A stretch of DNA of 64,000 bases from a virus (IMGVR_UViG_3300025723_000013), one strand, 5' to 3'. Counted from the stretch's first letter, positions 30,514 to 51,147 are shown. Numbers and translations: made by a program. Notes: generated by a model not told the origin, from the letters alone.

Positions 30514-30580
30514 GTTTGACTCCTTGTATAAAAGTATTTATTGTGACTGCCAAATACCGCTGCGTCACATAAATATCTAT

Positions 30581-30718
30581 ATGCAAATAGATTTCCATCA
30601 TGTATTGATCATTGCATTGCTGGTATTCAGTGTTCCCCTAGTTGTGATAGGCGTGATTGAATTACTGGGCTGTGTAAAGATGTTTGATAGAGAAAAACTT
30701 AAAAAAACCCCGCTGTAA
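30581..30718 (+). CDS. Small membrane protein
   Basis: 45 aa, one TM segment; ATAAATA-N5-ATG. Confidence 0.6.
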   Translation: MQIDFHHVLIIALLVFSVPLVVIGVIELLGCVKMFDREKLKKTPL

Positions 30719-30721
30719 CTA

Positions 30722-30750
30722 TTGACGCAATGCGCGTGTTCATGTAACAT
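30722..30750 (+). promoter_or_regulatory. sigma70-type promoter
   Basis: TTGACG-N17-TAACAT, directly after a variant of the CCCCGCTG motif. Confidence 0.55.
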
Positions 30751-30789
30751 GCTGTTCTTGATTTAACAGACAGAGGTTTAAACACAGCT

Positions 30790-30942
30790 ATGCGTAAATT
30801 TACAGCCCGTATCTACACTCCTGACAACTCCTGGAATCGTTATTTTGATGTGGTCATTGATGCCATTGACTATTGGGATGCAAGAACACGTCTCGAGGCA
30901 CAGTATCCAAATTTGGAATTTCGTGGGCTGTGTGAGTGCTAG
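30790..30942 (+). CDS. Small hypothetical protein MRKFTARIYTP...
   Basis: 50 aa, GAGG SD, downstream of promoter; below ORF-track cutoff. Confidence 0.65.
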   Translation: MRKFTARIYTPDNSWNRYFDVVIDAIDYWDARTRLEAQYPNLEFRGLCEC

Positions 30943-31002
30943 GCACACGCAGTAGTGGTGAAATTGAGATAAACAAAATCTTTTGTTTCGGTCATGCGGG
31001 TT

Positions 31003-31017
31003 CAAATACCCCGCTGT
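31003..31017 (+). repeat. Dispersed motif CAAATACCCCGCTGT (first exact copy)
   Basis: Exact 13-mer core also at 41521, 41964, 46164, 48165, 48702, 49226, 51128. Confidence 0.9.
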
Positions 31018-31082
31018 GTGAGACTTGCAAGGATAAGTAATTGTGTAGTCCAAACGGGCTATCCATAAAAAGGAGACGAATC

Positions 31083-31199
31083 ATGTTTAGTTTTGATTTT
31101 TTAACAGGTCTAGTGGTAGGAGCCGTGGTGGTAGTGCTGGTACCGGCTGCTTTTTCCTGGGTGGCCAAGCAGGTCACCAGCGTGAAAAAGAACCTATAG
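31083..31199 (+). CDS. 38-aa single-TM peptide MFSFDFLTGLVVGAVVVVLVPAAFSWVAKQVTSVKKNL
   Basis: AAGGAG SD, hydrophobic helix with basic tail. Confidence 0.7.
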   Translation: MFSFDFLTGLVVGAVVVVLVPAAFSWVAKQVTSVKKNL

Positions 31200-31239
31200 T
31201 ACACATTGACAGCAAACCCTGAACCAAAAGTGAAGTGAG

Positions 31240-31475
31240 CTCTAGGCCGTGTATCCTGATTGAGCAACGGCTCAACTCACCTAATGGGGAGGTATAACCT
31301 CTAGTGTTGATGGTGATCCATTGGATCTACCGGAGCTGAGCACATGATGATAGGATCATGTGTTACTCGTGCGACTAGGTTAACTGTGTGCTTGAATCAG
31401 CAAGACTGGACACGGATTATCCGTAAAAATCACAGAGGGGTACAGATGCGGGGCACCAGCACAATCTGTAACTGA
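31240..31475 (+). ncRNA. Candidate structured non-coding RNA of unknown class
   Basis: At least seven stems in ~235 nt of non-coding DNA, followed by a terminator; see findings. Confidence 0.55.
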
Positions 31476-31477
31476 AC

Positions 31478-31502
31478 AAGCAGGGGAGACCCTGCTTTTT
31501 CT
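31478..31502 (+). terminator. Intrinsic terminator
   Basis: AAGCAGGG-GAGA-CCCTGCTT followed by T-run. Confidence 0.85.
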
Positions 31503-31589
31503 TGACCTAATACCCCGCTGTGTGACATTGACATTGTGTGCGCTGATGCTATAATTGCCAGCATGACCATTAGCACCAAGGAGTATCGA

Positions 31590-31790
31590 ATGTTTACCCG
31601 TTTTGAAAAAATCATATTGGCAGGCGGCGTGGCCTTTTTTGTCCTATTGTCCTTGTGGGTTTGGTATGAACTGACCGTGACCATTCCTCAATCGCAGGCA
31701 CGCTGCCAGGCCCGCGGCGGAAACTGGGTTCGCCTGCAGCATCGAGATGTGTGCCTGGCCTCGGCTGTGTTGATTGACTTGGATCGCTAG
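31590..31790 (+). CDS. Small membrane-anchored protein
   Basis: TM segment then C..RGG.W....C; own TTGACA/TATAAT promoter (31528-31555) and AAGGAG SD. Confidence 0.7.
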   Translation: MFTRFEKIILAGGVAFFVLLSLWVWYELTVTIPQSQARCQARGGNWVRLQHRDVCLASAVLIDLDR

Positions 31791-31949
31791 ATCATGCTGC
31801 TAGGTATCAGCATCTGTTTGTTTTTGTTCACACATCATTGGTTCATAGCCCTGCTGCTGTTGTTGTGGCACATTGAACGCAGTTTTTGACCGTTGACAGT
31901 GACTGTGCATGTGCTATAATGCAGTCATAGTTAGAACAAGGAGCACTAC

Positions 31950-32246
31950 ATGAATATGCGAGCACTGGGTACTTGTCCTGTTTGTGATGGCACTGGTCGC
32001 ATGGCCGCTGGCAATCGCCAGTACAAGATGGTGATCTATGGATATGATGCCAAAACCGATACCTTGGGCTGCAATAACTGTGGCGGCCAATACATGGACG
32101 CCCGACCCACAGGTCAGGTGCCGCTGAATCATGAGGGCCAACCATGCCGCCATGTGTACAAGGGCGTGCCAGGCCGTTGGCGCTGCACCACAGACTATGT
32201 GTGCCAGCACTGCCATGATACCTACATGATTGATTCGGGCGATTGA
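31950..32246 (+). CDS. Cys-rich putative Zn-finger protein
   Basis: CPVCDGTG, CNNCGG, CQHC; own promoter and AAGGAG SD. Confidence 0.75.
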   Translation: MNMRALGTCPVCDGTGRMAAGNRQYKMVIYGYDAKTDTLGCNNCGGQYMDARPTGQVPLNHEGQPCRHVYKGVPGRWRCTTDYVCQHCHDTYMIDSGD

Positions 32247-32247
32247 C

Positions 32248-32436
32248 ATGAGAGAAACCAAGGATCAGCTGCGGCAGCAGTTGGCTCAATTGCAGGAGCA
32301 GAATCAAGAACTGCGGCAGCAGTTGGAGATCAAACAGCAGCAGATCGCTGAACTGCGGGAGTTTCTCAAACCGGCCAAACTCAAAGAGTTCTTTGAGGAT
32401 TCTGATTATAGATACCTGTTCAAGGGCGGCATTTGA
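32248..32436 (+). CDS. Small coiled-coil protein
   Basis: Q/L/E heptads, start just after upstream stop. Confidence 0.6.
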   Translation: MRETKDQLRQQLAQLQEQNQELRQQLEIKQQQIAELREFLKPAKLKEFFEDSDYRYLFKGGI

Positions 32437-32485
32437 CCATGACTCAAAACCTGTTATAATGCCTACTCACTGACAAGGAGCACAC

Positions 32486-32653
32486 ATGTATAAAGTGACT
32501 GTTTACAAAAAGGACCGACGTTGCAAGTCCGGATATCGAAAGGTTGCAGTGATTCCTTACCCTAACGCCTCGGGCAACTCCATGATGGACGAGTGCAAGT
32601 ATCTGCGCCAAACCACTTACAAACCCGAGGACGGTTATAAAATAGACTGGTAG
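32486..32653 (+). CDS. Small basic protein MYKVTVYKKDRRCKSGYR...
   Basis: 55 aa, promoter and AAGGAG SD; below ORF-track cutoff. Confidence 0.7.
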   Translation: MYKVTVYKKDRRCKSGYRKVAVIPYPNASGNSMMDECKYLRQTTYKPEDGYKIDW

Positions 32654-32718
32654 ATTTTGAGAGTGACATTGCCTCAAAACCTGCTATACTACACACACAC
32701 TTACAGCTAGGAGCAGAA

Positions 32719-33363
32719 ATGTTTAACACCAAGGCAGCAGCGGATGAGTTTGTTGGCGGGTTGAGCAACACCTCCAAGATGCCGGGCAAGAGTTTTGGAC
32801 TGAGTGCCACTCGCTGCCAAGTGGGTTCCAAACTGCGGTCGGTGGCTGGTAGTACCTGCCATAAATGCTATGCCATGAAAGGCGCCTACACATGGGAGAG
32901 CACAGTCGGCGCACATGATCGTCGACACCTACAGCTGATGCAGGCACTGACCGATACCCTAACACGTGACTCATGGATCGCTGCCATGGTACGCTTGCTC
33001 AAGGGCGAAACATATTTTCGCTGGCACGACAGCGGCGACTTGCAGAGCGAACAGCATCTGGAAATGATCGCAGAAGTGGCACGTCAGACTCCAGAGGTCA
33101 AGCACTGGATACCCACTCGTGAATACAGTTATGTGCGTAAATTCCTTATGAAGAACAGTCGTCCTCGCAATCTTGTGATACGGCTCAGCGCACAGATGAT
33201 TGATCAACCGCCAGCCACAGGCTTTGAACACACATCAACAGTTCACAAACAGGGTCAAGCCCACGGACGTGAATGCCCATCTCGTTTCCAGAACAACGAA
33301 TGCCAAGATTGCCGAGACTGTTGGGATGATACAGTGGACAATGTCAGCTATTTCGCTCACTAA
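32719..33363 (+). CDS. Gp88-like protein (Cys-rich, radical-SAM-like fold)
   Basis: SKMPGKSFGL...CQVGSKL...CHKCYA...YFRWHDSGD...HWIPTRE...CQDCRDCWD. Confidence 0.8.
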   Translation: MFNTKAAADEFVGGLSNTSKMPGKSFGLSATRCQVGSKLRSVAGSTCHKCYAMKGAYTWESTVGAHDRRHLQLMQALTDTLTRDSWIAAMVRLLKGETYFRWHDSGDLQSEQHLEMIAEVARQTPEVKHWIPTREYSYVRKFLMKNSRPRNLVIRLSAQMIDQPPATGFEHTSTVHKQGQAHGRECPSRFQNNECQDCRDCWDDTVDNVSYFAH

Positions 33364-33375
33364 TTGGAGGATCAC

Positions 33376-33573
33376 ATGGCCTACAAGATCTTTAAACTGC
33401 ACGGATCATATGGACCTCGCAAGGGCCTAGAAGGTCCGTTTGAATATTTCAACGGCAGGGTGCTGTACTATGATGTCAAGGAAGGCCGCTATTGGGATCC
33501 AAGGACTGATTTCTATCTGGACGATGAAGAAATTGCCAGTCTACACAACGGTCTGATCAATTTGCTCAAGTGA
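33376..33573 (+). CDS. Conserved small phage protein
   Basis: GLEGPF...VLYYDVKEGRYWDPRTDFYL; GGAGG SD. Confidence 0.75.
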   Translation: MAYKIFKLHGSYGPRKGLEGPFEYFNGRVLYYDVKEGRYWDPRTDFYLDDEEIASLHNGLINLLK

Positions 33574-33630
33574 GATTGACAATGCGTTGACATGTGCTAA
33601 AATCGTGGCACACTGAATAGGAGCTATCGC

Positions 33631-34059
33631 ATGAAAGAAAGAATTTTTAACATGGCCTTGGAGGCACAGACAAAATCACATGGACAGGAACCGTGGAGTT
33701 TCACAGACAGTGAGCTGGTGAATTTTGCAGTGCTGGTACGGCAGGACCTGATTAAAAATCTCTTGTTGAAAACACCCGATGTCTACTCCAACAGGTATTT
33801 TGACACCATCAAAGATACGCCTGAACCCAAATCTGCGATCACACGCATAGATCAGTTGATCCAACAGGTGAGCACTGACATCAGCGGCAAATGGATCAGC
33901 CGCGATTCAGTTCGAACTCTAGCCCAGTTGATTGTTAGGGAATGTGCCAAAATTGGAGAAGATTATGGTGATGACGGACTTTCATCTGACCCTGAAGGTA
34001 ATAGATATCCCTTGAATGCGGGCATAGCAATTAGGAAACATTTAGGAGTTGAAGAATGA
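33631..34059 (+). CDS. RI.EL..FAQLIV.EC..FGVE family protein (tandem two-unit form)
   Basis: LAQLIVRECAKI...IRKHLGVEE; promoter at 33575. Confidence 0.75.
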   Translation: MKERIFNMALEAQTKSHGQEPWSFTDSELVNFAVLVRQDLIKNLLLKTPDVYSNRYFDTIKDTPEPKSAITRIDQLIQQVSTDISGKWISRDSVRTLAQLIVRECAKIGEDYGDDGLSSDPEGNRYPLNAGIAIRKHLGVEE

Positions 34060-34202
34060 CAGACTATGAATTAGCAGAAACATTGAAAACTGCTGCCAAG
34101 AGTGCGAGAGATAACATTGCTCTTGAAATGCTGTTGTTGATGGCGGCAGAACGAATCGAACAGTTGAGTGTGGTGCAAACTCCGGGAAACTATAATGAAT
34201 GA
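34056..34202 (+). CDS. Small hypothetical protein MTDYELAE...
   Basis: 48 aa, ATGA overlap with upstream gene. Confidence 0.6.
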   Translation: MTDYELAETLKTAAKSARDNIALEMLLLMAAERIEQLSVVQTPGNYNE

Positions 34203-34428
34203 TCGAATTCGTGAACTATATGTAAAATCGATGGAGTCAACTGGCGTAGAAGGTCTAGGCGGCTCTTATCAGGAATTAAACCCTGTAAAGTTCGCCCAGT
34301 TGATTGCAAAAGATTGTGCCGATATCTGCCTTGAGATGGCAGCAAAGTGTGCTGGAATTCCTGGTGATGGTGCACTAGCAAAAGATTGTGCTTATTGGAT
34401 TAAAAAAGATTTCGGAGTTGAAGAATGA
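34195..34428 (+). CDS. MNDRIREL...FGVEE family protein
   Basis: Family N-, mid- and C-terminal blocks. Confidence 0.75.
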   Translation: MNDRIRELYVKSMESTGVEGLGGSYQELNPVKFAQLIAKDCADICLEMAAKCAGIPGDGALAKDCAYWIKKDFGVEE

Positions 34429-34769
34429 GTTTAGATGTAAATTTAATGGTTACCCAACCCGTATCGGTTTATAGTGAGAATATTACGCATAACCTTGGAG
34501 CAATGGCAAGGGAAGTAAAATTGTCAAACGGCATGACATTGTATGATGTATTGTGGCGTCCCGATGAACAAGAAGGGTTGAAGTTTGCTAAAGATATTTC
34601 AGAATTGCTAGATGAGGGCTGGAATATTCTATTATCAGACCCTGAGCATTACAAAAAGTTTAAGCCAGCTGGCGGCTGGGGAAGTTATGAAGGACTCTTA
34701 TTGTTTGTATACGAGTATAGAAACGCATGTTGGGATAATCCTGATGCAGAATTGAGAGTGTCAAGATGA
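34425..34769 (+). CDS. Conserved hypothetical phage protein
   Basis: MSLDV...NITHNLGAMA...LWRP...GWGSY; ATGA overlaps at both ends. Confidence 0.75.
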   Translation: MSLDVNLMVTQPVSVYSENITHNLGAMAREVKLSNGMTLYDVLWRPDEQEGLKFAKDISELLDEGWNILLSDPEHYKKFKPAGGWGSYEGLLLFVYEYRNACWDNPDAELRVSR

Positions 34770-35041
34770 ACGAACGAATTCGAGAACTTGCTGAACAAGC
34801 AGTCAAAGATGTTGATGTTGTCCACGAGGATAATCCCTTCAACGAAGAATTGGCTAAGATGTATATTCCGAATCTCTTTATTGAACGATTCGCCAAATTG
34901 ATTGTGTGGGAGTGTTTGAGTGAACTGCAAATCAGCAAGCGATGTGACCCATATACGGGTGAAATTTATATCAACGAATATAATCAAGCAATTGACGACC
35001 AAATAAAGATGTTAGCAGGACATTTTGGAGTTGAACAATGA
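34766..35041 (+). CDS. MNERIREL...HFGVEQ family protein
   Basis: Family blocks; 5' DNA near-identical to 50106. Confidence 0.75.
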   Translation: MNERIRELAEQAVKDVDVVHEDNPFNEELAKMYIPNLFIERFAKLIVWECLSELQISKRCDPYTGEIYINEYNQAIDDQIKMLAGHFGVEQ

Positions 35042-35280
35042 ACAAATATGATTTAAATATACATCAAAACCCAGACGCTATGGCTTGGACCAAGTTTTTC
35101 AGGGAAACTCATCCATCCTGTAACATAGATGATGATGTAATGCTTGGATGGTTCGCCAATGCTATGATGGCAATGCATGATTTTTTAATCTATAAAGACG
35201 CTCCGTTAAATGGAGATCATGCAGAATTTATGTTAACTCAGGAAAATGTGCTTTCCCGCATTAAGAGGATTGAAGAATGA
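35038..35280 (+). CDS. Hypothetical protein
   Basis: DAMAWTKFF...MLGWFANAM; ATGA overlaps. Confidence 0.7.
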   Translation: MNKYDLNIHQNPDAMAWTKFFRETHPSCNIDDDVMLGWFANAMMAMHDFLIYKDAPLNGDHAEFMLTQENVLSRIKRIEE

Positions 35281-35471
35281 GGTATTGGTTCTATAGAACA
35301 CTGATGCGATTAGCACATCGTTTCAATTGGCACCACATGAAACCTTGCTATCCAGATGGAGACACTATGCTTTGGTGTCATTGGTGTGGAATTAGGGTTG
35401 TAATAAAACAATCAAACAAAACTTTGGAGTTGAAGAATGATAATGCACCTTCACAATTGACGAACAAATAG
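35277..35471 (+). CDS. Small hypothetical protein (WHHM...CHWCG); 3' part carries out-of-frame FGVEE remnant
   Basis: 64 aa ORF; alternative frame reads IKQNFGVEE* at 35411-35440. Confidence 0.55.
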   Translation: MRYWFYRTLMRLAHRFNWHHMKPCYPDGDTMLWCHWCGIRVVIKQSNKTLELKNDNAPSQLTNK

Positions 35472-35502
35472 CCATGTTAAAAGAGCTTTTTGGAGTTGAA
35501 AA

Positions 35503-35871
35503 ATGATTAACACCATCAAAGAACTGCTGGGCCACACCTTGATCAATGTAGAGGTAAACTCAGACGGCAACGAAATCTTGTTCACCCGCGAGGATGGAAT
35601 TCGATACCGTATGTATCACAGGCAGGACTGCTGTGAGGATGTGGCCATTGAAGATGTATGTGGTGACTGGCATGATCTCATAGGCAGCCCTTTGTTAGAA
35701 GCCGAAGAAGCCACCAGTGACGATATGCTGAACTGGTTGGAACACATCACTTGGACATTCTACAAATTCGCCACCATCAAGGGCAGTGTGACCATTCGCT
35801 GGCATGGTATCAGTAACGGTTATTACAGCCAGCGGGTGGATTTTGAGTGCTTGGACGAAGTTGAATGTTGA
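35503..35871 (+). CDS. Conserved hypothetical phage protein
   Basis: MYHRQDCCEDVAIEDVCGD...WTFYKFATIKGSVTIRWHG.SNGYYS. Confidence 0.8.
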   Translation: MINTIKELLGHTLINVEVNSDGNEILFTREDGIRYRMYHRQDCCEDVAIEDVCGDWHDLIGSPLLEAEEATSDDMLNWLEHITWTFYKFATIKGSVTIRWHGISNGYYSQRVDFECLDEVEC

Positions 35872-36086
35872 ACAACATCTTAAAATGGCTTGCTACCAAG
35901 ACTCTGATCATAGGCACGTTGATCAACAGCCTGGGCTATTATCCCCTAGGACCCTTGATTCTGCTGGCCGGTGGGCTGATGTGGCTGATTGTGGCCATAC
36001 GCTGGAGAGAAGCTTCCCTCATAGTGACCAACGGCGTCATGGCTGCGATCAGCACGGCTGGACTGATCTATCACTATTATCATTGA
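35865..36086 (+). CDS. Small multi-TM membrane protein
   Basis: 73 aa, three hydrophobic segments. Confidence 0.7.
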   Translation: MLNNILKWLATKTLIIGTLINSLGYYPLGPLILLAGGLMWLIVAIRWREASLIVTNGVMAAISTAGLIYHYYH

Positions 36087-36139
36087 CTGCTGTGTTTGAT
36101 CTGCTATAATACTCACATACTAGAGCGGAGACGAACACT

Positions 36140-36373
36140 ATGAATTGGAACTTGGAAGGTTTGATTGTGCGTGGTCGCTATCTTGGACAGCATCCGGTGC
36201 AGGGTCACGTGGTGTTGTCACGCACCAAGTACGGAAGTGGCATTGATCATCATGTGGTGTTGGATCATCCACTGGATCTTTTTGGCAGCTGCCGCGATCG
36301 AGTGGTGCTAGCCCATCATCACGTGGATCAGGTGTTGCAGAATCACTCCAAGGAGTGGGTACGTCATGGATAA
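36140..36373 (+). CDS. Hypothetical protein
   Basis: 77 aa, GGAG SD after TATAAT. Confidence 0.7.
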   Translation: MNWNLEGLIVRGRYLGQHPVQGHVVLSRTKYGSGIDHHVVLDHPLDLFGSCRDRVVLAHHHVDQVLQNHSKEWVRHG

Positions 36374-39737: not shown

Positions 39738-40193
39738 ATGCTGCTGCGTGAATTACTGGACCGTCCTTACCCTGTTGCCTTGGATGACCCCGACGCCGCC
39801 GACGCGGCCTATCGAGCCGTTTGGATCTGGAGATTCACCACAGATCAGGGCGATCAAGGCGAAGTCACCATAACTCGCAGTTTGATGCACAGCCGGACTT
39901 CAGTGAAATACAGCATCAACGGCAGCCGGGATAGACCCAATCGAGATCAACTCCGTCCCAACAGCATGAGAATCTTCAGCTCGGTGTTGGCCGCTCTCAG
40001 ACACTACTGGAGCCTCAACCCTGCCAATCAAACCCAGACCCTGGAATTTGTGGGCAGCCACAGCGATCCCAAAAGACTGGCGTTTTATGATCGCATGGCT
40101 CAGCAGCTGGGTCGGTGGATTCCCTACAGACTGGTGAGCACACAGGATCATCCAGACGATTACAAGAAGTATGTGTTGGCCCGGATCCGTTAG
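39738..40193 (+). CDS. Hypothetical protein (MLLRELLDRP leader); related to 52820-53233
   Basis: Shared MLLRE.[LF]DRP start and F.T.QG motif; ATAAATA box 39724-39730. Confidence 0.7.
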   Translation: MLLRELLDRPYPVALDDPDAADAAYRAVWIWRFTTDQGDQGEVTITRSLMHSRTSVKYSINGSRDRPNRDQLRPNSMRIFSSVLAALRHYWSLNPANQTQTLEFVGSHSDPKRLAFYDRMAQQLGRWIPYRLVSTQDHPDDYKKYVLARIR

Positions 40194-41413
40194 GCAGCGG
40201 AGCCTGATTGTTTTTGTTGGGCATAGGCCTGCTTGAGTGCTTGCAGCACACGACGGATACAGTCCGGTCTAGTTTGCGTTTTCTGCCATTCATCCTCCCA
40301 AATCACCACCAAGGTAAAGCCTTTCTGGCGCAGATATTCTTCTTTTTCTTGATTTAGTCGTCTACGTTCGCCTGCCGTTTTTCCAACTTTGGGTAACGGG
40401 GTGTTGTCGTCCTGGAATCGTAAGGGGTTGGCATGGTAAAGATCGCCATAATACTCCACGATCATGGGAGGATCTTCTATGAATAGATCGATTTTGTATG
40501 AATCTCCGTGACGGCCGCCAGTGGGGATTGGTACAGAGTGTTGAGGGTTCAGCGGTTGAATTTCGGGTAGCTGTGAGATTGTTTCAAAAAAATGTATTTC
40601 ACCTTGACTGCGCTGATGTACTTTTTGATTTTTTTTATAGTCTTGATGTAAAAGATCATAATCTGGCAGGTTTTTTAGGTGTCTTCTAATAGTTCCACGA
40701 TCTCGATCAATTCTTAAGCTGATATATCCAGGATTATAGCCCTGCTGATACAATTCGCGTATTTCATGATCTTGTTGCACAGTGAACGACCTTTTTTCTC
40801 GTTTTTGCCTAGCCTTAAACTGCCTATCGACAACAGCAGATACACTGGGTATTGATCTATTTTTCTCACGAGCGATCTTAGCGATGGACCAGTTATATTC
40901 GCCCTCGGGATCATAGTGACTTCGTATGAATTCTTCATCGTCGGGAGTGAACGACCTTTTTTCTTGTTTTTGCCTAGCCTTAAACTGCCTATCGACAACA
41001 TCAGATACACTGGCCGCTAATCTATTTAACACACCAGCGATCTTAGCGATGGACCAGTTATATTCGCCCTCGGGATCATAGTGACTTCGTATAAATTCTT
41101 CATCGTCGGGAGTGAACTCTTGATAGGGTCGTTTGAGTTCCTGATCAAGATAGCGATGGATCAGGACATAACTCTTTCCTAACTGTTTAGCAATGGCCGC
41201 TGCATTTAATCCCTGTTTGGCCAAGTGATTGATAAGAAAATAGTTCTTTATGGTTTGCTCGGTTGTACCAGCACCCAGTTGGTAATCGTGGATGAGATCT
41301 TGCAGTATGTGGTGATCACTGTGATGCTGAGCTCGCAGTTGGCGCATGCGTGCTCTCTGTTGAACAGTAAACCCTCGAAACGCTTCTTGAATGAATAATT
41401 CACGTAATAGCAT
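40190..41413 (-). CDS. Tandem-HTH DNA-binding protein with C-terminal Vsr/DUF559-like PD-(D/E)XK endonuclease
   Basis: Four FT......R..Y......IA..L.R HTH-like units; C-term KIDLF..VEYYGDLYH...KEEYLRQKGFTLVVIWEDEW; ATAAATA-N5-ATG. Confidence 0.8.
   Translation of the reverse strand: MLLRELFIQEAFRGFTVQQRARMRQLRAQHHSDHHILQDLIHDYQLGAGTTEQTIKNYFLINHLAKQGLNAAAIAKQLGKSYVLIHRYLDQELKRPYQEFTPDDEEFIRSHYDPEGEYNWSIAKIAGVLNRLAASVSDVVDRQFKARQKQEKRSFTPDDEEFIRSHYDPEGEYNWSIAKIAREKNRSIPSVSAVVDRQFKARQKREKRSFTVQQDHEIRELYQQGYNPGYISLRIDRDRGTIRRHLKNLPDYDLLHQDYKKNQKVHQRSQGEIHFFETISQLPEIQPLNPQHSVPIPTGGRHGDSYKIDLFIEDPPMIVEYYGDLYHANPLRFQDDNTPLPKVGKTAGERRRLNQEKEEYLRQKGFTLVVIWEDEWQKTQTRPDCIRRVLQALKQAYAQQKQSGSAA
40781..41117. 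repeat. 165-bp tandem duplication (55-aa HTH unit)
   Basis: agtgaac.. recurs at 40781, 40946, 41111 with high DNA identity. Confidence 0.9.
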
Positions 41414-41519: not shown

Positions 41520-41578
41520 TCAAATACCCCGCTGTACGTGATGCGCACACACGCATACACACGCGCACACACGCACAA
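41520..41578. repeat. Motif plus (CA/CG)n alternating purine-pyrimidine tract 1
   Basis: TCAAATACCCCGCTGTACGTGATG followed by cgcacacacgcatacacacgcgcacacacgcac. Confidence 0.85.
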
Positions 41579-41962
41579 ACCCGCAGAGATTGAGTGTGTG
41601 CCGGTGGAGGAAACACTGCCCGTGACCAGAGTCCGTGACCCGTGACCCGTGATCGCGATTCCGGAGCAAGAAAGAATGGTCCAGAACCGGTCAAGAAGCG
41701 GTTGGCACCATTTAAACTATGCCTCACTTCCTTCACCTTGTCACGGGGTTTCTAGCCCAGATTCCCTGCCGCTTGAACTTCAGACCGTGACAGAAACCTG
41801 GAATAAAACCCCACCAAACCGTGAGGATTTTGGGCCAAAACGGTGGGGGTTTGAGACATTTCCCCACACTTTTTGAGGAATTTTGATCCATCTCAGTGTG
41901 GGGCTACCCTAGCACAGGATCCCACTACAACCACAGCCACCGGCTGGATCACAGTGGGGTTG

Positions 41963-42090
41963 TCAAATACCCCGCTGTACGTGATGTGCACACACGTACA
42001 TATACACACACTAGCGCACACACACGTACATATACACACACGCACACACACGTACATGTATACACACACGCACACACGAGCACATGCACA
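41963..42090. repeat. Motif plus (CA/TA)n tract 2, four imperfect ~27-bp units
   Basis: Same 24-nt header as 41520, then gcacacac(ac)gtacatatacacacac units. Confidence 0.85.
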
Positions 42091-42223: not shown

Positions 42224-42252
42224 TTGACACCTGTGGGGCAGTTGCATACACT
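42224..42252 (+). promoter_or_regulatory. sigma70-type promoter opening the early array
   Basis: TTGACA-N17-TACACT, AC-rich leader, AGGAG SD. Confidence 0.7.
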
Positions 42253-43083: not shown

Positions 43084-43935
43084 ATGGCACGAGAAACCAA
43101 CGTGATTGAACTGGATCCAGAAGCCGTGGCAGCGCGGGCTGCTGCTGTGGCCCAGGAGACCGACGATGAGATCCTGGCACGCTTGAACGAGCGATTCCAG
43201 ATCCTGGAAGACATGACCCTGGCAGTCAAGCGTGGATCGGTACGCAGCATGATCGTATCAGGTCCACCCGGCACGGGCAAGAGCCACGGCGTGGAACAGG
43301 TGCTCAGCCGCGACGACCTATTCAACACCCTGGCCCAGCGGCGGCCCAAGTACGAGATCGTGAAAGGAGCCACCAGTAGTGTGGGCCTGTATGCCAAACT
43401 GTTTGAGTATGCGGCTCCGGGCCATGTGCTGGTGTTTGACGACTGCGACACCATACTCATGGAAGAAGAAAGCCTCAACACCCTGAAAGGCGCCCTGGAC
43501 TCGGGTGAACGGCGCTACATTTCGTGGAACAAGGACAGCCGCCTGCTGCGCACACAGGGCGTGCCGGACCGTTTTGAGTTCTCGGGTTCAGTGATCTTTA
43601 TCACCAACATCAAGTTTGACTTTGTGCGCAGCAAGAAACTGCGAGACCACTTGATGGCCCTGGAGTCGCGCAGCCACTACATTGATCTGCAGATGGACAC
43701 CACGCGAGAAAAGATCCTGCGCATACGCCAGATCGTGGCCCAAGGCATGCTGTCTCGCTATCTGTTTGAACAGGATCAAGAAGCCCAGATCATTGACTTC
43801 ATAGTGGAGCATCAGGAGCGACTGAGCGAGCTGAGCCTGCGCATGGTGCTGAAAATCGCGGATCTGCGCCGTGAGTTTCCAGACACTTGGCGCAACATGG
43901 CTCGCACCACCTGCATGAGCCGGCAGCGCCCGTGA
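43084..43935 (+). CDS. AAA+ family ATPase
   Basis: Walker A SGPPGTGKS, Walker B VLVFDDCD, VIFITN. Confidence 0.9.
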   Translation: MARETNVIELDPEAVAARAAAVAQETDDEILARLNERFQILEDMTLAVKRGSVRSMIVSGPPGTGKSHGVEQVLSRDDLFNTLAQRRPKYEIVKGATSSVGLYAKLFEYAAPGHVLVFDDCDTILMEEESLNTLKGALDSGERRYISWNKDSRLLRTQGVPDRFEFSGSVIFITNIKFDFVRSKKLRDHLMALESRSHYIDLQMDTTREKILRIRQIVAQGMLSRYLFEQDQEAQIIDFIVEHQERLSELSLRMVLKIADLRREFPDTWRNMARTTCMSRQRP

Positions 43936-45449: not shown

Positions 45450-45483
45450 AATCACCACGTCCAAACAACGCAGGAAGACCAAA

Positions 45484-45912
45484 ATGGCCTACATGAATCA
45501 AGAAAGAAAAGCACAGGTTGCACCACTGGTCAAGGCCGTGTTAACACGCTACGGCGTGAAGGGGTCGCTGTCGGTTCGCAACCATATGACACTGTGCCTT
45601 AACATCAAGGCGGGCACGATTGATTTCATTGACAATTTCATCAGCACGGATCAGGCACGGGGTCATGCCCATCCAATGACAGCCGAAACCATCCAGCGCC
45701 TCCGCAACGAGCAGAGCCTAGACGTTAACCCGTACTGGTTCCATGAGCACTTTTCAGATCGCGCTAGAGCATTCCTAAGCGATGTGATGACTGCGCTAAA
45801 GGGTGCGGGTTGGTACGACAAATCGGATGCGCACACGGACCACTTTGACACCGCTTACTATATTAGCATAAGCATTGGTGACTGGAAAAAGCCTTACCAG
45901 CTGATCGCGTAA
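45484..45912 (+). CDS. Conserved phage protein
   Basis: DVNPYW...WYDKSDAHTDHFDTAYYISISIGDWKKPY. Confidence 0.8.
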   Translation: MAYMNQERKAQVAPLVKAVLTRYGVKGSLSVRNHMTLCLNIKAGTIDFIDNFISTDQARGHAHPMTAETIQRLRNEQSLDVNPYWFHEHFSDRARAFLSDVMTALKGAGWYDKSDAHTDHFDTAYYISISIGDWKKPYQLIA

Positions 45913-45976
45913 GTGACTGAATCTTGAGGCAAAACTGGTGCTTGACTATTCCATCACCAGAGACTATAATGATCGC

Positions 45977-46146
45977 ATATTGGCACGTGAGGGCGTCACC
46001 CTCTATTCTGGTCCGGAAGATGAGAAGCCCGTGACAGGGCAGGACCTTACCATTTGGTGCAAATGGCCTTGGCAACAGGACAGTCTTCCCAGGTCGAGAA
46101 GCGGGTGGAAGGTGGCAACACTACAATTACCGCCGCTGGGAAGAAG
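45977..46146 (+). ncRNA. Candidate structured ncRNA with two GCAA tetraloops
   Basis: Own promoter TTGACT(45942)-N17-TATAAT(45965); seven stems; no SD-led ORF. Confidence 0.6.
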
Positions 46147-46163
46147 CTATTAGGAAAAAACCT

Positions 46164-46213
46164 CAAATACCCCGCTGTGTGGGGTTGACAATGCCCACAC
46201 AGCGTGGTACAAT
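46164..46213 (+). promoter_or_regulatory. Motif-fused sigma70 promoter with -35 box inside an 11-bp inverted repeat
   Basis: CGCTGTGTGGG(46173-83) G-TTGACA-ATG CCCACACAGCG(46194-204); TACAAT at 46208. Confidence 0.8.
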
Positions 46214-46281
46214 GCTGTTATCAAATCTAGCCCAGAGGAGAGCCCTAGATTATAACTAGTTGTAGTCAGGGAGAAAACACC

Positions 46282-46563
46282 ATGTATCTTGATGAAAGCA
46301 CTGTGGAAAAAATGCGTGAGCAGTTGGCGCACAGAGACGAGATCATGACCGATGCACTGCGCAAGCGCGACGCGCACCGGCTCATGGCCCAGGAGTATCG
46401 AGATCAGCTGGGTCAAGCACGGGTGCAGATCTCACAGCTGGAGGCACAGATGCAATCCCAGGCCGCGCAGCTGGATCAGCTGCGCACAGACAATCGGGAT
46501 TTGGAAGCGTTCAATCGCATGCTGCAGAAGATGATACGACGTATGGCTCACAAGGACAAATAA
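46282..46563 (+). CDS. Coiled-coil protein
   Basis: 93 aa heptad pattern, GGGAG SD. Confidence 0.7.
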   Translation: MYLDESTVEKMREQLAHRDEIMTDALRKRDAHRLMAQEYRDQLGQARVQISQLEAQMQSQAAQLDQLRTDNRDLEAFNRMLQKMIRRMAHKDK

Positions 46564-46565
46564 AC

Positions 46566-46787
46566 ATGGTCAAGCGAACAAAGATTTTACACGAAGAACT
46601 GGAGTATGTGACCGCGCAACGCAACTGGACACTGGCACAAAAAAACTTTCGCCAGCTCAAACGCCGAGAGGGTGTCACGGACGAAGATCTAGCCCTGGCC
46701 AAACAGCGCCTGGAAGTGTTCAAGTCCCGAGCACAGGAAACCAGCGCAGCGTTGACTCGCGCGGGGCTCAACAAGGGTTCTATCTAG
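46566..46787 (+). CDS. Small hypothetical protein
   Basis: 73 aa, AAGGA SD. Confidence 0.65.
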   Translation: MVKRTKILHEELEYVTAQRNWTLAQKNFRQLKRREGVTDEDLALAKQRLEVFKSRAQETSAALTRAGLNKGSI

Positions 46788-46802
46788 CCACAGGACACAC
46801 AC

Positions 46803-46970
46803 ATGATTACTAACACGTTCATGACACACGCACCCTTTGTGATCGCTGTGCTGTGTGGGATCACAGCCATCCTGGCCCTGGTGCAGGGCCACTCAGACGC
46901 AGCCGGAGCTTGGCTGTTGGCCTTTGCGGGATGGCTCACGGTGCACGTGGAGCGCTTGACACAGCACTAG
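46803..46970 (+). CDS. Small two-TM membrane protein
   Basis: 55 aa MITNTFMTHAPFVIAVLCG..., AGGA SD. Confidence 0.6.
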   Translation: MITNTFMTHAPFVIAVLCGITAILALVQGHSDAAGAWLLAFAGWLTVHVERLTQH

Positions 46971-47008
46971 ATCCTGTTATAATGCACTCACAGTCACACA
47001 CGGAGAGC

Positions 47009-47176
47009 ATGATGGACCCGGCCAACTACCTGGAAAAGAATCGCACTCGCAGCCGCAATCCAGTGGCGCGACATGCCAATCAGTTCAATCGCCCAAGCAC
47101 GCACCCTAGCAAGCAGGATCGTGCTCGCCAGCGCCGACCCAAGTATGGGTTCCAGTTTGATCGGGAGCTGGTATGA
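47009..47176 (+). CDS. Small basic protein
   Basis: RNPVARHANQFNRPSTH; promoter and GGAG SD. Confidence 0.7.
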   Translation: MMDPANYLEKNRTRSRNPVARHANQFNRPSTHPSKQDRARQRRPKYGFQFDRELV

Positions 47177-47436
47177 CACGCGGTGTGCCCGTGCTGTGGC
47201 TGCCCACTGTGGCCTTGGCGGTGCTCATGATCCTGTTGGGTGTGAACCTGGTCAGCCACGTGGCCATGGCCTCTGCTGCTGTGCCCAGCACCATCTCATG
47301 CTACTCGGGCGGTCACGAGATCTATCGAGGGCGGGGTATACAAGTGGAACGCTTGGAGAACAGCTATGTGTACTTTCAAGAAGTGGGCACAGGGCGTGAC
47401 ATTTCCATACGTGCCGACTGCATGATCACCAAATAA
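47173..47436 (+). CDS. Secreted/membrane-anchored small protein
   Basis: N-terminal TM, CYSGG.EIY...ADC; ATGA overlap. Confidence 0.7.
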   Translation: MTRGVPVLWLPTVALAVLMILLGVNLVSHVAMASAAVPSTISCYSGGHEIYRGRGIQVERLENSYVYFQEVGTGRDISIRADCMITK

Positions 47437-47507
47437 ATGGTTGACACAGCCCATAAGGGTTGTATACTACAACAGTTGACAAGGCATTTACCAAGGAGCC
47501 AATCGCA

Positions 47508-47681
47508 ATGCCACGTTTTATCAGCGACGAACATCTGATGGAAGACATCTTCACGCAGACCAATCCTATTGTGAAGTCGGACTTTTTTGATGACGCCAAC
47601 CAGTTTGATGATTGGGAGGAGGATTGGGAAGAGGACAGTGAGCAGACCTGGGCTCACATGGACGCAAACGACCAGGATTGA
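47508..47681 (+). CDS. Highly acidic small protein (possible DNA mimic)
   Basis: 19 D/E versus 2 K/R in 57 aa; AAGGAG SD. Confidence 0.7.
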   Translation: MPRFISDEHLMEDIFTQTNPIVKSDFFDDANQFDDWEEDWEEDSEQTWAHMDANDQD

Positions 47682-47744
47682 GGTTGACACAGCCTGTGCA
47701 CGAACATATACTGCACAGGCTATTTACACACTAGGGAGAACAGT

Positions 47745-47942
47745 ATGACCAGTTACAAGATCCAAGTTACTTTTCCAAACTCGGGCGAGACCCGCACTTT
47801 CCGCAGTGTGCACGCTGTGGCACGCATGCTGAGTGGCACGGGCACTGCATCGGGCGGTCTGCGCCAGCAGATCGTGCACAAGGCCAACGAAGGCTATTGG
47901 GGTCATGACAACATCGTGCGCCGCCACGCGGTAGTGGGCTAG
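47745..47942 (+). CDS. Standalone NUMOD1-like HTH protein; paralog of 42735-42980
   Basis: VTFPNSGETRTFRSVHAVARMLSGTGT.SGG shared. Confidence 0.65.
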   Translation: MTSYKIQVTFPNSGETRTFRSVHAVARMLSGTGTASGGLRQQIVHKANEGYWGHDNIVRRHAVVG

Positions 47943-47948
47943 GGCACA

Positions 47949-47980
47949 CAGGGCCTGCTGATTGGATTCAGCAGGCCCTG
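47949..47980. terminator. 13-bp perfect stem-loop after gene
   Basis: CAGGGCCTGCTGA-TTGGAT-TCAGCAGGCCCTG; weak U-tail. Confidence 0.55.
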
Positions 47981-48002
47981 AACTGTTTTGGTCACAGCAC
48001 CC

Positions 48003-48155
48003 ATGACACACACTAGACCCCAATGCGGCCGTTGCAGTCAGCTGGAGGACCGCATACAACAGCTGAGGGACGCGCTCAAGGCCATACAGGCCCACAGCCA
48101 AAGCACCCCGCAGATTCGAGAGCTGGCCACCCGATCTCTACGGGGCATCATTTAG
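48003..48155 (+). CDS. Small hypothetical protein MTHTRPQCGRC...
   Basis: 50 aa ORF, weak SD. Confidence 0.45.
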   Translation: MTHTRPQCGRCSQLEDRIQQLRDALKAIQAHSQSTPQIRELATRSLRGII

Positions 48156-48309
48156 CAACAGGCTCAAATACCCCGCTGTGTGGGGATCTCCGCTGCTGAT
48201 AAATAAAAACTACCAATACATACAAACGCACTTGCGCACTGTGCACACTGTGTTATAGTGCATGTGTGCGTCAGGTCAGCAACCGCTACCACATATAGGA
48301 GCATAGCCC

Positions 48310-48594
48310 ATGCTAGAAGAAATCAGTACCGAATACGATCCGGAACTAGACGCCCACATCACAAAATATGCCTGCAGCTTTTTGGCCAGCTGCGAGGACC
48401 AAATGGTCAAAGTGACCGGCATCACAGTATGCGACGGCGGCGACTTTGAGGTCATTTGGGTAAAACACAACGGTGACCTGTTGTACCACGACCGTGAGTT
48501 TGAGCATGCTATCAGTCACGCTTTGGGTTATCGTGTACAGTTTACCGAACAAGGCATGCAGGCGCCTAAATCGGCCTGCCTGGAACGAATTTAA
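48310..48594 (+). CDS. Conserved hypothetical phage protein
   Basis: LLYHDREFE..IS..LG..V.FTEQGMQ; AGGAG SD. Confidence 0.75.
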   Translation: MLEEISTEYDPELDAHITKYACSFLASCEDQMVKVTGITVCDGGDFEVIWVKHNGDLLYHDREFEHAISHALGYRVQFTEQGMQAPKSACLERI

Positions 48595-48888
48595 CACAGC
48601 CCAGCGCCGCCTGCACAGCGGCGCTGTTTGGACGCCGCTGCTGCCTCATGGTGTGTGCTGGTCAGCAGTTGAAATCGCAGTGGGGCAGTGTGCTAGATCC
48701 CCAAATACCCCGCTGTGTGGGTTTATATCCGCCCCACTGTTGCAATCTTAAACGTGTGTTTTGATCACGTGGGGCAGCTCCCACTGTTGCCACAAAGCTT
48801 ATAGGAATTTTTGGTGGGATCCGGTTGACAACTCCAGCACCGGCACGCATACTACACACACTGCAAACCAGCAGTGACAGGAGCACAC

Positions 48889-49125
48889 ATGGAACACGTC
48901 AACATTGACTGCTATTTGGAATCACCTGCAAGCACACCCGATCTGGAAGAAGCCTGGGATCTGGACGCACAGTATCCAGGCGAGGATCAGGAGGAATGGG
49001 GCGACTACGAGGACGACAGCGACCGTGAGAATCAGCCCACCGAATACGAGGAGTGGCAGGCCGTGAGTGGCGGCGACGACAACTGGTACGACAACGCAAT
49101 GGAAATCGGCGACCTGGACTACTAG
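48889..49125 (+). CDS. Highly acidic small protein (possible DNA mimic)
   Basis: 27 D/E versus 1 R in 78 aa; own promoter (48825) and AGGAG SD. Confidence 0.75.
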   Translation: MEHVNIDCYLESPASTPDLEEAWDLDAQYPGEDQEEWGDYEDDSDRENQPTEYEEWQAVSGGDDNWYDNAMEIGDLDY

Positions 49126-49133
49126 ACCTCTCC

Positions 49134-49163
49134 AGGGCCTGTTTTGGCAACAGGCCCTTTTTT
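49134..49163 (+). terminator. Intrinsic terminator
   Basis: AGGGCCTGTT-TTGGC-AACAGGCCCT-TTTTT. Confidence 0.85.
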
Positions 49164-49469
49164 AGTGGCCCGCATTTCCCACCAGCACAATCACAGCAGC
49201 AGATGGCAGCAGTGGGGCCGCTGCCCAAATACCCCGCTATCACTATCTCTAAAAATATCTCGCAGTGGCTGGTCGGTACCGCTGTTCCCTGAACCCTGCG
49301 TGTGCATTCAAAAACGCAGCACGTGGGGCGGACACTGCGGCCGTGAACAGCTGGTGCAGTTCCCACAGTGCCGCATGCGAACCCGGCCAGCAGCAGTGGG
49401 GAGGATTAAATAACAGTTGACAGAGGGCGGCTGAACTAGTAAACTGGCTGCACTTAGAGGAGACACACA

Positions 49470-49808
49470 GTGATTGAAACAGTGATCGATTTGATTCCGT
49501 TTGTATTGGTCATGATGAGCGCGGCACAGTTGGTGGTGGTCATGTTGGTGCACAGTGATCTTAAAAACTTATTTGTTAACCTGACTCAACGCCTGGACAG
49601 CTTGAAAGACTCAGAACTTACCATTTCGCAGGGCAACAGCAGCCCAGCGCCCACCACTTTTGCGCATGCGCCCACCACAGCACCCGGTGCGGGCACAGGC
49701 TCTCAAAGTGCAGGCGTGGTTGACCGCCACCCACCCGCACAGACCGCTGGAATCTATGAGGTCAGCGATGCGCAAGTGATCGCAGCGTTGCGAGAGCTGG
49801 ACAAGTAA
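49470..49808 (+). CDS. Membrane-anchored hypothetical protein
   Basis: GTG start, GAGGAG SD, promoter TTGACA-N17-TAAACT at 49416. Confidence 0.65.
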   Translation: MIETVIDLIPFVLVMMSAAQLVVVMLVHSDLKNLFVNLTQRLDSLKDSELTISQGNSSPAPTTFAHAPTTAPGAGTGSQSAGVVDRHPPAQTAGIYEVSDAQVIAALRELDK

Positions 49809-49881
49809 TTGCCGGCGGGGTGCAACGCCCTAGCCCCACCAGGCCGTATACAACCCTAGCTACAATCTGTGGGGTTGAGTT

Positions 49882-49927
49882 GGGCCCCAATGCGCTGTAT
49901 TAAAAGAATATAAATGCAGCGGTGGGG
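49882..49927. repeat. 46-bp dispersed direct repeat, copy 1 (copy 2 at 52506-52551)
   Basis: gggccccaatgcgct(g/c)tattaaaa(g/a)aat(a/c)taaatgcagcggtgggg, 43/46 identical. Confidence 0.9.
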
Positions 49928-50105
49928 TGCAACGACGCAGCCCCACGCAGTGGCCAGTGCAGCTGACCTCGATCCGAGTGTGACTCAGCAGCGCTGGACA
50001 AAAAACACTTGCAAAATACACACACTGTGTTAAATTTGCAGCTGTAGCAATCGGCCAGTGGCTCTGGAGATTGTGCCCAATCAATTAAACACTTGGAGTT
50101 GCAGC

Positions 50106-50324
50106 ATGAACGAACGAATTCGAGAACTGGCTCAACAAGCTGCTGATGGTATGCTTTCTTATGATGCTGAAGGTGAATGGCGTCTTAATCAAAAGGAAGC
50201 GGAAAAGTTCGCCCAGTTGATTGTGAGAGAATGTGTTATAATTGTGGCAGATGCCGTTGACCATCGCGAACCCGCCATCACTTATGCGAGCAAGATTAAA
50301 CAACATTTTGGAGTTGAACAATGA
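50106..50324 (+). CDS. MNERIREL...HFGVEQ family protein
   Basis: Family blocks; GGAG SD. Confidence 0.75.
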   Translation: MNERIRELAQQAADGMLSYDAEGEWRLNQKEAEKFAQLIVRECVIIVADAVDHREPAITYASKIKQHFGVEQ

Positions 50325-50938
50325 CTGAGGAGAAAGCACAAGTGAAAACTGTGATTTGCACTAGTCTTAACAAGATTCGCGCGCGCGTTCCATGCGAGAA
50401 AGGGTGGAAAAAACTACTCGATCATTTGGGTAAAACTAAAGCGGACGATGAACCATTACCGTTTTCCGTAATTGTCGAATCAAACGGACTTGACGACGCG
50501 TTGTGGGCGTGTAGAACAACGCCAGAATATGACCACGAGTGGCGTTTGTTTGCAGTTTGGTGCGCACGACAAGTACAACATTTGATGACTTACCATCAAT
50601 CGGTCGATGCGTTAGATGTCGCATACCGACACGCGAACGGACAAGCAACCAATGAGGAGCTACACGCTGCGCAAAATGCGGCGAAAGATGCAGCGAGAGA
50701 TGCAGCGAGAGATGCGTATCACAAGTCAGTACAGGATGCGGCGTGGGCTGCGGCGTGGGCTGCGGCGAGGGCTGCGCGGTATGCGGCGTCGGCTGTGGCG
50801 GAGTATGCGGGGTGGGCCGCGCGAAATGCGGCGGGGGGTGTGGCGGAGTATGCGGGGTGGGTTGCGTGGGCTGCGGCGAAAGACGCTCAAACACAAAAAT
50901 TTCTGGATGTGGTGTCAAGTGCGCGGGGGGAGAAATGA
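50321..50938 (+). CDS. Phage protein with AAW/AAR alanine-rich repeats
   Basis: PCEKGWKKLL, NGLDDALW, RLFAVWCARQVQHL, AAWAAA repeats. Confidence 0.8.
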   Translation: MTEEKAQVKTVICTSLNKIRARVPCEKGWKKLLDHLGKTKADDEPLPFSVIVESNGLDDALWACRTTPEYDHEWRLFAVWCARQVQHLMTYHQSVDALDVAYRHANGQATNEELHAAQNAAKDAARDAARDAYHKSVQDAAWAAAWAAARAARYAASAVAEYAGWAARNAAGGVAEYAGWVAWAAAKDAQTQKFLDVVSSARGEK

Positions 50939-51063
50939 AACCGCACATGTACGTCTATGTAAACAACCGATTGATCACAGTGGAATCCTGCCTGGAGTTT
51001 GCCATGCCCTATTGGGCTAAACGCAAACAGACCAATAAACGGATCACTTGGAAGTTCCGATAG
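50935..51063 (+). CDS. Small hypothetical protein
   Basis: 42 aa MKPHMYVYVNNRL...AMPYW; ATGA overlap. Confidence 0.6.
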   Translation: MKPHMYVYVNNRLITVESCLEFAMPYWAKRKQTNKRITWKFR

Positions 51064-51147
51064 CGCTGGTACACCCGGGCCAGCGCAGCTGGATCTCGCC
51101 GGGCACACGCGCAACCAGTGTGGGGATCAAATACCCCGCTGCGCTCC

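Follow-up and report, generated by a model that had tools for sequence, protein, structure and literature searches.

What reads a short, one-way sequence that recurs through the early region of a large viral genome, and to what effect? The question is raised by a 64,000-nucleotide stretch of viral DNA (IMGVR_UViG_3300025723_000013, hereafter the window), in which a motif of about 16 bp, here called M, recurs in a single orientation. M is real, one-way and intergenic, is limited to the early region and is a conserved feature of a clade of phages, and a literature search found the motif string in no paper. It is most likely an undescribed phage-specific transcription signal, and the reading preferred here, to which we give a probability of roughly 0.4, is that M is a compact, self-contained promoter, forming a third, "middle" class in phages without MotA and AsiA.

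The word CAAATACCCCGCT occurs eight times in the window, always on the plus strand and precisely where a first-pass annotation, made from the sequence, had placed it (Table 1), and it does not occur in 100 dinucleotide-preserving shuffles of the window. A search of the window allowing up to two mismatches returned 12 matches against 1.3 expected, all of them on the plus strand, and the 11-nucleotide core AATACCCCGCT was found ten times on that strand and not once on the other, in agreement with the annotation's statement that the minus strand holds no copies. Among these 12, the match at 11830 is probably due to chance. Decayed copies are nearly absent, as the core is either exact or missing altogether, and the changes in one-mismatch variants are restricted to the A-rich 5' part. 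The list of variants in the annotation needed revision: the copy at 31507 (one mismatch) was retained, the one given at 30704 in fact starts at 30702 (AAAAAACCCCGCT), and the one at 30551 (CAAATACCGCTGC) is two C's short, fails the two-mismatch search and is at best a decayed copy. A further copy with an exact core (TTAATACCCCGCT) was found on the plus strand at 21572, within the first 30.5 kb, where the annotation had seen none. This is the sole window copy in coding sequence, the other 10 of 11 lying outside plus-strand open reading frames (ORFs) led by a Shine-Dalgarno (SD) sequence; the description of the copies as intergenic or located at gene ends therefore holds for all but this one, which is inside a fibre gene.

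A logo built from 87 non-identical copies reads c-a-AATACCCCGCT-G-T-A-g, the position after the core being G in 70 copies and A in 16. Since these copies were gathered by the exact word ACCCCGCT, only the flanking positions of the logo constitute independent evidence, and there the information falls to near zero on both sides, giving the motif sharp edges. The 3' boundary is formed by a purine in 86 of the 87 copies, 8 nt past the last A of AAATA, and nothing is conserved further out; no -35 or -10 box stands at a fixed distance across the logo. There is likewise no constant hairpin at M: the C-run forms the 3' arm of a Gn-loop-Cn hairpin in four window copies, and a hairpin in the RNA was rejected as the conserved feature, given that pairing probabilities are ordinary, that the partners of the C-run are split between the 5' and 3' sides and that partial inverted complements near M are only about 3-fold enriched (17% versus 6%). 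The 9-bp inverted repeat that the annotation had described around the copy at 48702 is present. M shares AAATA with the late box of the same phages, and several copies in two related genomes (G001 and G002) contain a full TAAATA; this can be read in at most 24 of the 87 copies, the first position being mostly C.

At least 55 IMG/VR viral contigs of related uncultured jumbo phages carry M according to a two-copy pattern scan, and a 14-mer scan of the same database gave about 22 contigs with two to four same-strand copies placed 26-113 bp apart. The M-bearing contigs are taken to be relatives because they encode homologues, at 46-60% identity, of two adjacent 258-aa GT9-like proteins of the window (26873-27649 and 27662-28438). 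This pair is the best-conserved neighbour of the motif region in the relatives, and M lies downstream of the GT9-like genes, on the same strand, in 19 of the 19 related loci that hold them; one further record (G004) has a GT9-like gene and no M in a scan of the whole record. The whole-genome scan that the first-pass annotation had proposed as a check, run on the records of relatives (Table 1), shows M to be one-way and regional rather than genome-wide, with all copies in G001 and G002 on the strand of the early genes. The strand-specific cis signal of the early region which the annotation had postulated is accordingly real and selected, being conserved in position and direction among many related phages. 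Two of its suggestions about function fared less well. A genome-wide polar signal of the Chi or KOPS type is contradicted by the confinement of the G001 and G002 copies to 22-30 kb and by the presence of only one of 11 window copies inside a gene, while an iteron describes the tandem clusters of distant relatives and not copies that are scattered, with no helical phasing, through 20-30 kb. Mosaicism is high in the early regions of G001 and G002. A junction between a small ORF and tRNA-Met is homologous in G001 (L123, about 10245, minus strand) and G002 (L125, about 19208-19446) and contains M in G001 only, a clean presence/absence difference of about 30 nt.

The surroundings of M were analysed in the near clade (the window, G001 and G002; 28 copies). 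The orientation of M is always that of the downstream genes. Its start lies 0-11 nt after a co-directional stop codon in seven of the 28 copies, or just past a terminator, as at 31507, where M follows the intrinsic terminator 31478-31497 by 10 nt and precedes the next promoter, so that 31478-31555 forms a terminator-M-promoter cassette. M also heads rightward blocks next to divergent minus-strand genes with late promoters (30702 and 41521 in the window, position 550 in G002), and no sigma70-like site precedes the copy at 41521. In some gaps of 37-50 nt it is the sole signal; one G001 gap consists of a stop codon, 10 nt, M, 12 nt and ATG, with an SD sequence between, another of M, 4 nt and ATG, and a third of M, 14 nt and tRNA-Met. 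Copies also occur inside operons, between adjacent ORFs, and close to tRNA or tRNA-like sequences, 14 nt ahead of them or 15 nt behind. M is absent from the three convergent junctions of the window and from the front of late genes. The annotation had linked the motif to promoters through -35 boxes at 30722, 31528 and 46185, which were indeed found 20-21 bp after the motif start. Across the near clade a sigma70 -35 box lies 20-22 bp past the start of M in five of the 28 copies, placing M at about -56 to -41, against an expectation of 0.13-0.5 (P about 1e-7 by a naive and 1e-4 by a conservative estimate, two of the five coupled copies being perhaps duplicates of one another); the promoter link is thus valid for a subset of copies and not for most of them.

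In distant relatives M forms part of a composite locus, the order being the GT9-like genes, a TA/CA-rich tract, two to four copies of M, short G-rich repeats resembling GGTGGGAGAAC and a conserved box, CCATTTGACTATAGCCTCTC..CCCCAC, after which come phased A-tracts with DnaA-box-like CCACA words, a sigma70 promoter and tRNA-Met. The box lies within 420 nt downstream in 25 of 37 unique arrays, and the first 80 nt past the array are G-rich on the M strand. The spacings within arrays (26-113 bp) show no helical phasing. In the window the box starts at 41709; the M copies at 41521 and 41964 flank it and, as had been annotated, both head CA-rich tracts. In G001 the box is present without an adjacent M. 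This locus, examples of which are 41537-41963 of the window and L010, L041, L046, L058, L065, L084, L087, L089 and other loci, is read here as a probable origin or regulatory hub. Pairing of the G-rich repeats with the conserved C-rich box was considered and discarded, as it barely exceeds shuffles (-16.5 versus -15.0 kcal/mol). A conserved AAA+ ATPase (phrog_1250) is encoded at 43084-43935, 1.1 kb past the origin-like region; its fold class is that of clamp-loader/RuvB/Orc-Cdc6/NorQ proteins, with a weak Pur-alpha-like stretch at residues 183-236.

With regard to function, M would be a DNA-level transcription-initiation signal of an uncultured T4-like jumbo-phage clade and the counterpart there of the T4 middle promoters. 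Host RNA polymerase together with a phage specificity factor would read it, and the transcript would begin with the conserved purine that lies 8 nt past the A of ACCCC. M may in this way set rightward transcription going again beyond the stop codon or terminator of an early unit, double up with some of the sigma70 early promoters and, as a tandem array of two to four copies, fire into the origin-like non-coding region. We infer all three of its central elements, namely the transcription start at M, the reading by a phage factor and the priming or activation of an origin by the array. The self-contained promoter is the reading with the fewest conflicts, because it explains the co-orientation of M with genes, its place at the head of blocks, its being the sole signal in short gaps and the purine at its 3' edge, as well as the T4-like tandem with early promoters and the arrays before the origin-like region. 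An element needing upstream transcription fits the operon-internal copies, but not those at 41521, with no promoter before it, and at 31507, just past a terminator; a pure upstream activator site suits the five coupled promoters, but not the 37-50 nt gaps or the tRNA case; and an end-of-unit block agrees with the stop codons and terminators nearby, but not with the copies directly before promoterless genes and tRNA. It also speaks for a promoter that the phage already uses a one-block late promoter, NATAAATA, in addition to consensus sigma70 early promoters, that MotA and AsiA were not found in five related records, and that 25 of 37 M arrays precede a G-rich, origin-like region, as in T4 oriF and oriG depend on a middle promoter. 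The five copies with a -35 box 20-22 bp further on resemble the tandem early and middle promoters of T4 (PMC5780444), an arrangement for which the PmSLs may also be consulted (PMC4122927).

Several observations weigh against such a promoter. No candidate factor was found, and the relatives show neither a T7-like RNA polymerase, in a search that had no positive control, nor a sigma70-family gene. Melting would be difficult in the stretch CCCCGCT, which separates the A-rich block from the proposed start, tandem copies down to 26-31 bp apart are tight for independent promoters, and where M stands 8-9 bp before a -35 box a polymerase at M would overlap the sigma70 promoter. The position of M 0-11 nt after stop codons and right past terminators fits an end-of-unit signal equally well. 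Furthermore, most strong early sigma70 promoters have no M, and for the same reason M was rejected as an upstream element of all early promoters.

The alternatives place the action of M in the transcript, in a bound protein, in replication or in no reader at all. M might be a transcribed signal acting on nascent RNA or on the non-template strand, either as an antitermination loading site of the nut, put or ops kind or as a processing site for polycistronic early transcripts and tRNA precursors. This would account for a motif that is co-oriented with transcription and yet keeps no fixed distance to promoter boxes, for copies within operons, between adjacent ORFs and near tRNA or tRNA-like sequences, for arrays of two to four copies at the entry of the early region, and for a near-invariant core with almost no decayed copies, as suits base-pairing or single-strand recognition. 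However, no co-directional transcript is expected at 41521, where a divergent gene and no promoter-like site come before, the copy at 31507 stands 10 nt past a canonical terminator and ahead of the next promoter, no constant hairpin exists, and a NusG-family gene was not found in five related phage records by a search with a working control; we consider this explanation unlikely, while keeping it in view. A polar boundary is distinctly unlikely. In this case a sequence-specific DNA-binding protein at M would stop incoming polymerases, perhaps also head-on replication forks, and help the next promoter, as the strictly single orientation, the seven near-clade copies close behind stop codons, those directly after terminators, the position at -56 to -41 of five promoters and the arrays between the GT9-like pair and the origin-like region might suggest; such a block 14 nt before tRNA-Met or in 37-nt gaps would, on the other hand, silence promoterless genes, the arrays lack helical phasing, and scans of the early ORFs against Pfam and PHROGs identified no conserved DNA-binding protein. 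A more specific form, which we hold to be improbable, makes M the docking site of a phage protein that ends the upstream unit, arrests head-on forks and passes polymerase on to the neighbouring promoter, which would make it a phage equivalent of the Sal-box/TTF-I system; if it were true, the array by the origin-like region would make the start of replication one-directional.

It is also conceivable, if very unlikely, that M is primarily a replication-origin element, such as an initiator or loader binding site or a priming signal, and that its spread over the early region is secondary in the near clade. Distant relatives hold M only as one tandem array (three copies each in the 207 kb of G003 and the 107 kb of G005), which adjoins G-rich iterons, the conserved box, phased A-tracts, CCACA words and a promoter; the window has the box between two M copies, and 1.1 kb downstream is an AAA+ gene whose product has a fold of the clamp-loader/initiator class. 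This explanation is at odds with the 8-11 copies that the window, G001 and G002 have over 20-30 kb among ordinary genes, with the G001 box that has no adjacent M and with the unphased spacings of 26-113 bp, and the origin status of the region is itself only inferred. Least credible among these proposals is that M has no reader of its own, being a conserved spacer of mobile terminator-promoter cassettes homogenised by recombination among co-infecting phages. The terminator-M-promoter unit at 31478-31555 and the M-hairpin-promoter unit at 46164-46213 do resemble the promoter-early stem-loops (PeSLs) of T4-like hyperplastic regions, G001 and G002 are highly mosaic in their early parts, and M is present or missing at an otherwise shared ORF-to-tRNA-Met junction. 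Against this, the same 11-16 nt are kept where neighbouring proteins are 46-60% identical and every flank differs, decayed copies are nearly absent, only five of 28 copies are promoter-coupled, and the homology blocks shared by G001 and G002 end elsewhere than at M, a finding on which a role as a marker of recombination or gene-swap junctions was likewise dismissed.

A factor that could read M as a promoter was sought in several ways. Searches for MotA and AsiA (PF09158, PF09010), made without a positive control, gave nothing in five related records, of which one is 92% complete; T7-like RNA polymerase (PF00940) gave no match in the same number of records, nor did it in control genomes; and comparison of early ORFs with Pfam (about 39 ORFs) and PHROGs (about 13) brought up no DNA-binding family. 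Rfam contributed no relevant families. One of the binders proposed by the first-pass annotation, a tandem helix-turn-helix nuclease (40190-41413), has no homologue near the motif clusters of the relatives compared and was abandoned as not conserved. A conserved 98-aa early protein folds (predicted local distance difference test score, pLDDT, 77) and matched no solved fold, and the AAA+ protein, only weakly similar to Pur-alpha, belongs to the generic ATPases of clamp-loader/initiator type; neither was retained. A virion RNA polymerase reading N4-like hairpin promoters was also set aside, as the 2387-aa ORF is a collagen-like fibre and M has no constant hairpin. Finally, a host-borne or CRISPR origin was considered by a two-copy scan of 596 Gb of genomes, which gave 35 matches; those examined are unrelated tandem or coding repeats and two CRISPR arrays. 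One of these arrays, in a Polyangia metagenome-assembled genome (JBNKCR010000105.1, L156 1148-4953), has a 35-nt repeat ending CTCAAA(C/T)ACCCCGCTGTAAC, of which 18-19 of 19 letters are like M. A CRISPR repeat or solitary repeat unit acting as an RNA anti-CRISPR was rejected: the stretch shared with M runs opposite to the ATTGAAAC end of the repeat, what else the repeat contains is absent from the phages, none of the 12 spacers matches the phage loci, and the M spacings (26-113 bp) are irregular; the 19-nt match is probably a coincidence, with an estimated chance of about 0.01-0.03.

Table 1. Copies of M and associated features in the window, and distribution of M in related records.
Feature	Position	Strand or count	Remarks
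M, exact (CAAATACCCCGCTGTG)	31003..31018	+	67 nt upstream of a 38-aa SD-led ORF
M, exact	41521..41536	+	first plus-strand signal past minus-strand gene 40190-41413; heads CA tract; opens origin-like region
M, exact	41964..41979	+	closes origin-like region; heads second CA tract; next promoter at 42224
M, exact	46164..46179	+	11 nt past stop of ORF 45938-46153; 21 bp before -35 box at 46185
M, exact	48165..48180	+	followed by GTGTGGGG, able to pair with the C-run of M
M, exact	48702..48717	+	between arms of 9-bp inverted repeat, about 48678-48686 / 48731-48739
M, exact	49226..49241	+	3' part ATC, not GTA
M, exact	51128..51143	+	followed by three copies of a 31-nt repeat
M, one mismatch (CTAATACCCCGCT)	31507..31522	+	between terminator 31478-31497 and consensus promoter at 31528
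M, two mismatches (AAAAAACCCCGCT)	30702..30717	+	20 bp before -35 box at 30722; heads plus-strand block past minus-strand gene 29782-30513
M, core copy (TTAATACCCCGCT), candidate site	21572..21587	+	5' part of minus-strand fibre gene; 423 nt upstream of plus-strand HNH endonuclease gene
sigma70-like promoter, fixed spacing to M	30722..30750	+	
sigma70 consensus promoter (12/12), fixed spacing to M	31528..31555	+	
sigma70 promoter (11/12), fixed spacing to M	46185..46213	+	-35 box between tail of M and inverted copy CCCACACAGCG
Origin-like non-coding region	41537..41963	+	between two M copies; CA tract, short repeats, conserved box from 41709
Two GT9-like glycosyltransferase genes, syntenic anchor	26873..28438	+	
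M in G001 (326 kb)	within 54.9-77.0 kb	forward 0, reverse 8	
M in G002 (328 kb, 92% complete)	within 54.9-84.4 kb	forward 0, reverse 8	
M in G003 (207 kb)	one cluster	forward 3, reverse 0	
M in G005 (107 kb)	one cluster	forward 3, reverse 0	

The genome to which the window belongs has no close DNA relatives among GenBank phages, and protein searches gave only distant matches, namely cyanophage virion proteins (36-37% identity, with a third of the query covered) and the homologue of gene B (30%), found in two unannotated metagenomic records. Structural genes on the minus strand are present, as are a ligase, a DnaB-like helicase and a primase. The setting of M is the variable early region of a T4-type genome, with T4-type late promoters and ORFan-rich plus-strand blocks; from 30.5 to 53 kb most ORFs are small and belong to no known family, and consensus sigma70 promoters number 36 between 29.5 and 49 kb against 17.5 in shuffles (about twofold), the strongest being almost all on the plus strand. 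Late genes have NATAAATA boxes a few nucleotides before their starts, for example at 28806(-), 37600(-), 8410(-), 8097(-) and 13859(-), and this short distance to the start codon suggests that late mRNAs are leaderless or have very short leaders. A family of gene junctions with overlapping stop and start codons, TTTGGAGTTGAA.AATGA, links small paralogous plus-strand ORFs in two separate blocks (34030-35506 and 50295-50324). The word CAACGGATCCTGT has 13 plus-strand occurrences (among them 6928-7066, 18521-18695, 5578 and 1057), with an 18-bp period where tandem (6928-7066); these look like ordinary coding repeats, since most sit inside minus-strand tail-fibre genes with collagen-like matches.

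Understanding what M does is relevant to a wider issue in phage biology. T4 gene timing relies on three promoter classes. Many T4-like phages, among them the abundant cyanophages (PMC5780444), are without MotA and AsiA, and there is no settled account of how these phages pass from early to middle expression. The stretch marked by M is precisely the one in which a switch of this kind would be expected to operate, and M stands at the head of an origin-like locus as well. In addition, M can serve as a practical marker in metagenomic contigs of the clade, by which to find and orient their early region and probable origin. Even if M acts as a boundary or at the RNA level and not as a promoter, it would be a regulatory element not described before, in a large phage group of wide ecological distribution.

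Compared with the nearest known systems, M is lacking in defining features of each. The Sal-box/TTF-I (Reb1) polar terminators of ribosomal DNA resemble it as arrays of one-way sites of about 16-18 bp at unit ends, with a promoter-proximal copy, but that system is eukaryotic, and a bound protein, termination or fork arrest at M would be hypothetical. The ops/JUMPStart element (RfaH) is likewise short, one-way and sharply bounded and keeps no fixed distance to promoters, and GCTGTAG in the 3' half of M agrees in six of seven letters with GCGGTAG of Escherichia coli ops. However, ops (GGCGGTAGnnTG, 12 nt) lies in a transcribed leader and is read by a NusG paralogue, no such paralogue was found in the related phage records, the likeness is limited to GCTGTAG, and several copies of M stand before promoters or after terminators. 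The T4-type late promoter (TATAAATA, here NATAAATA), read by gp55, is similarly a single block containing AAATA, whereas M has mostly C rather than T in the first position and an invariant GC-rich tail, and never precedes late genes. Tandem repeats confined to one probable origin, as expected of iterons, are seen in the arrays of distant relatives and not in the window, G001 or G002.

The PeSLs of T4-like hyperplastic regions (PMC2839356, PMC4122927), like M, occupy intergenic gaps of a variable early region, all in one direction; the M cassettes share with them a stem-loop or terminator joined to a near-consensus TTGACA-N17-TATAAT promoter, and RB49-type PeSLs share with four window copies the Gn-loop-Cn hairpin in which the C-run of M is the 3' arm. 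This combination is present at 31478-31555 and in part at 46164-46213, but M is linear, mostly without a coupled promoter and without a constant hairpin (only five of 28 near-clade copies are promoter-spaced), and is kept far beyond close relatives. Gene-swap junction marking of the PeSL type is not seen in G001 and G002, where at one junction only M varies. The T4 middle promoters, with their MotA box and AsiA-remodelled sigma70, differ from M in that the box TGCTT near -30 is unrelated in sequence, in that M has no fixed -10 box (11-13 bp) and in that MotA and AsiA were not found in the records of M-bearing relatives. The MotA box is also about 9 bp long, M about 16 bp. In arrangement the two are alike: the T4 middle promoters, including those of oriF and oriG and the PmSLs of phage nt-1, are phage-specific, asymmetric, one-way boxes of the early/middle region, often located behind early terminators, in tandem with sigma70 early promoters and linked to origins, as is M.

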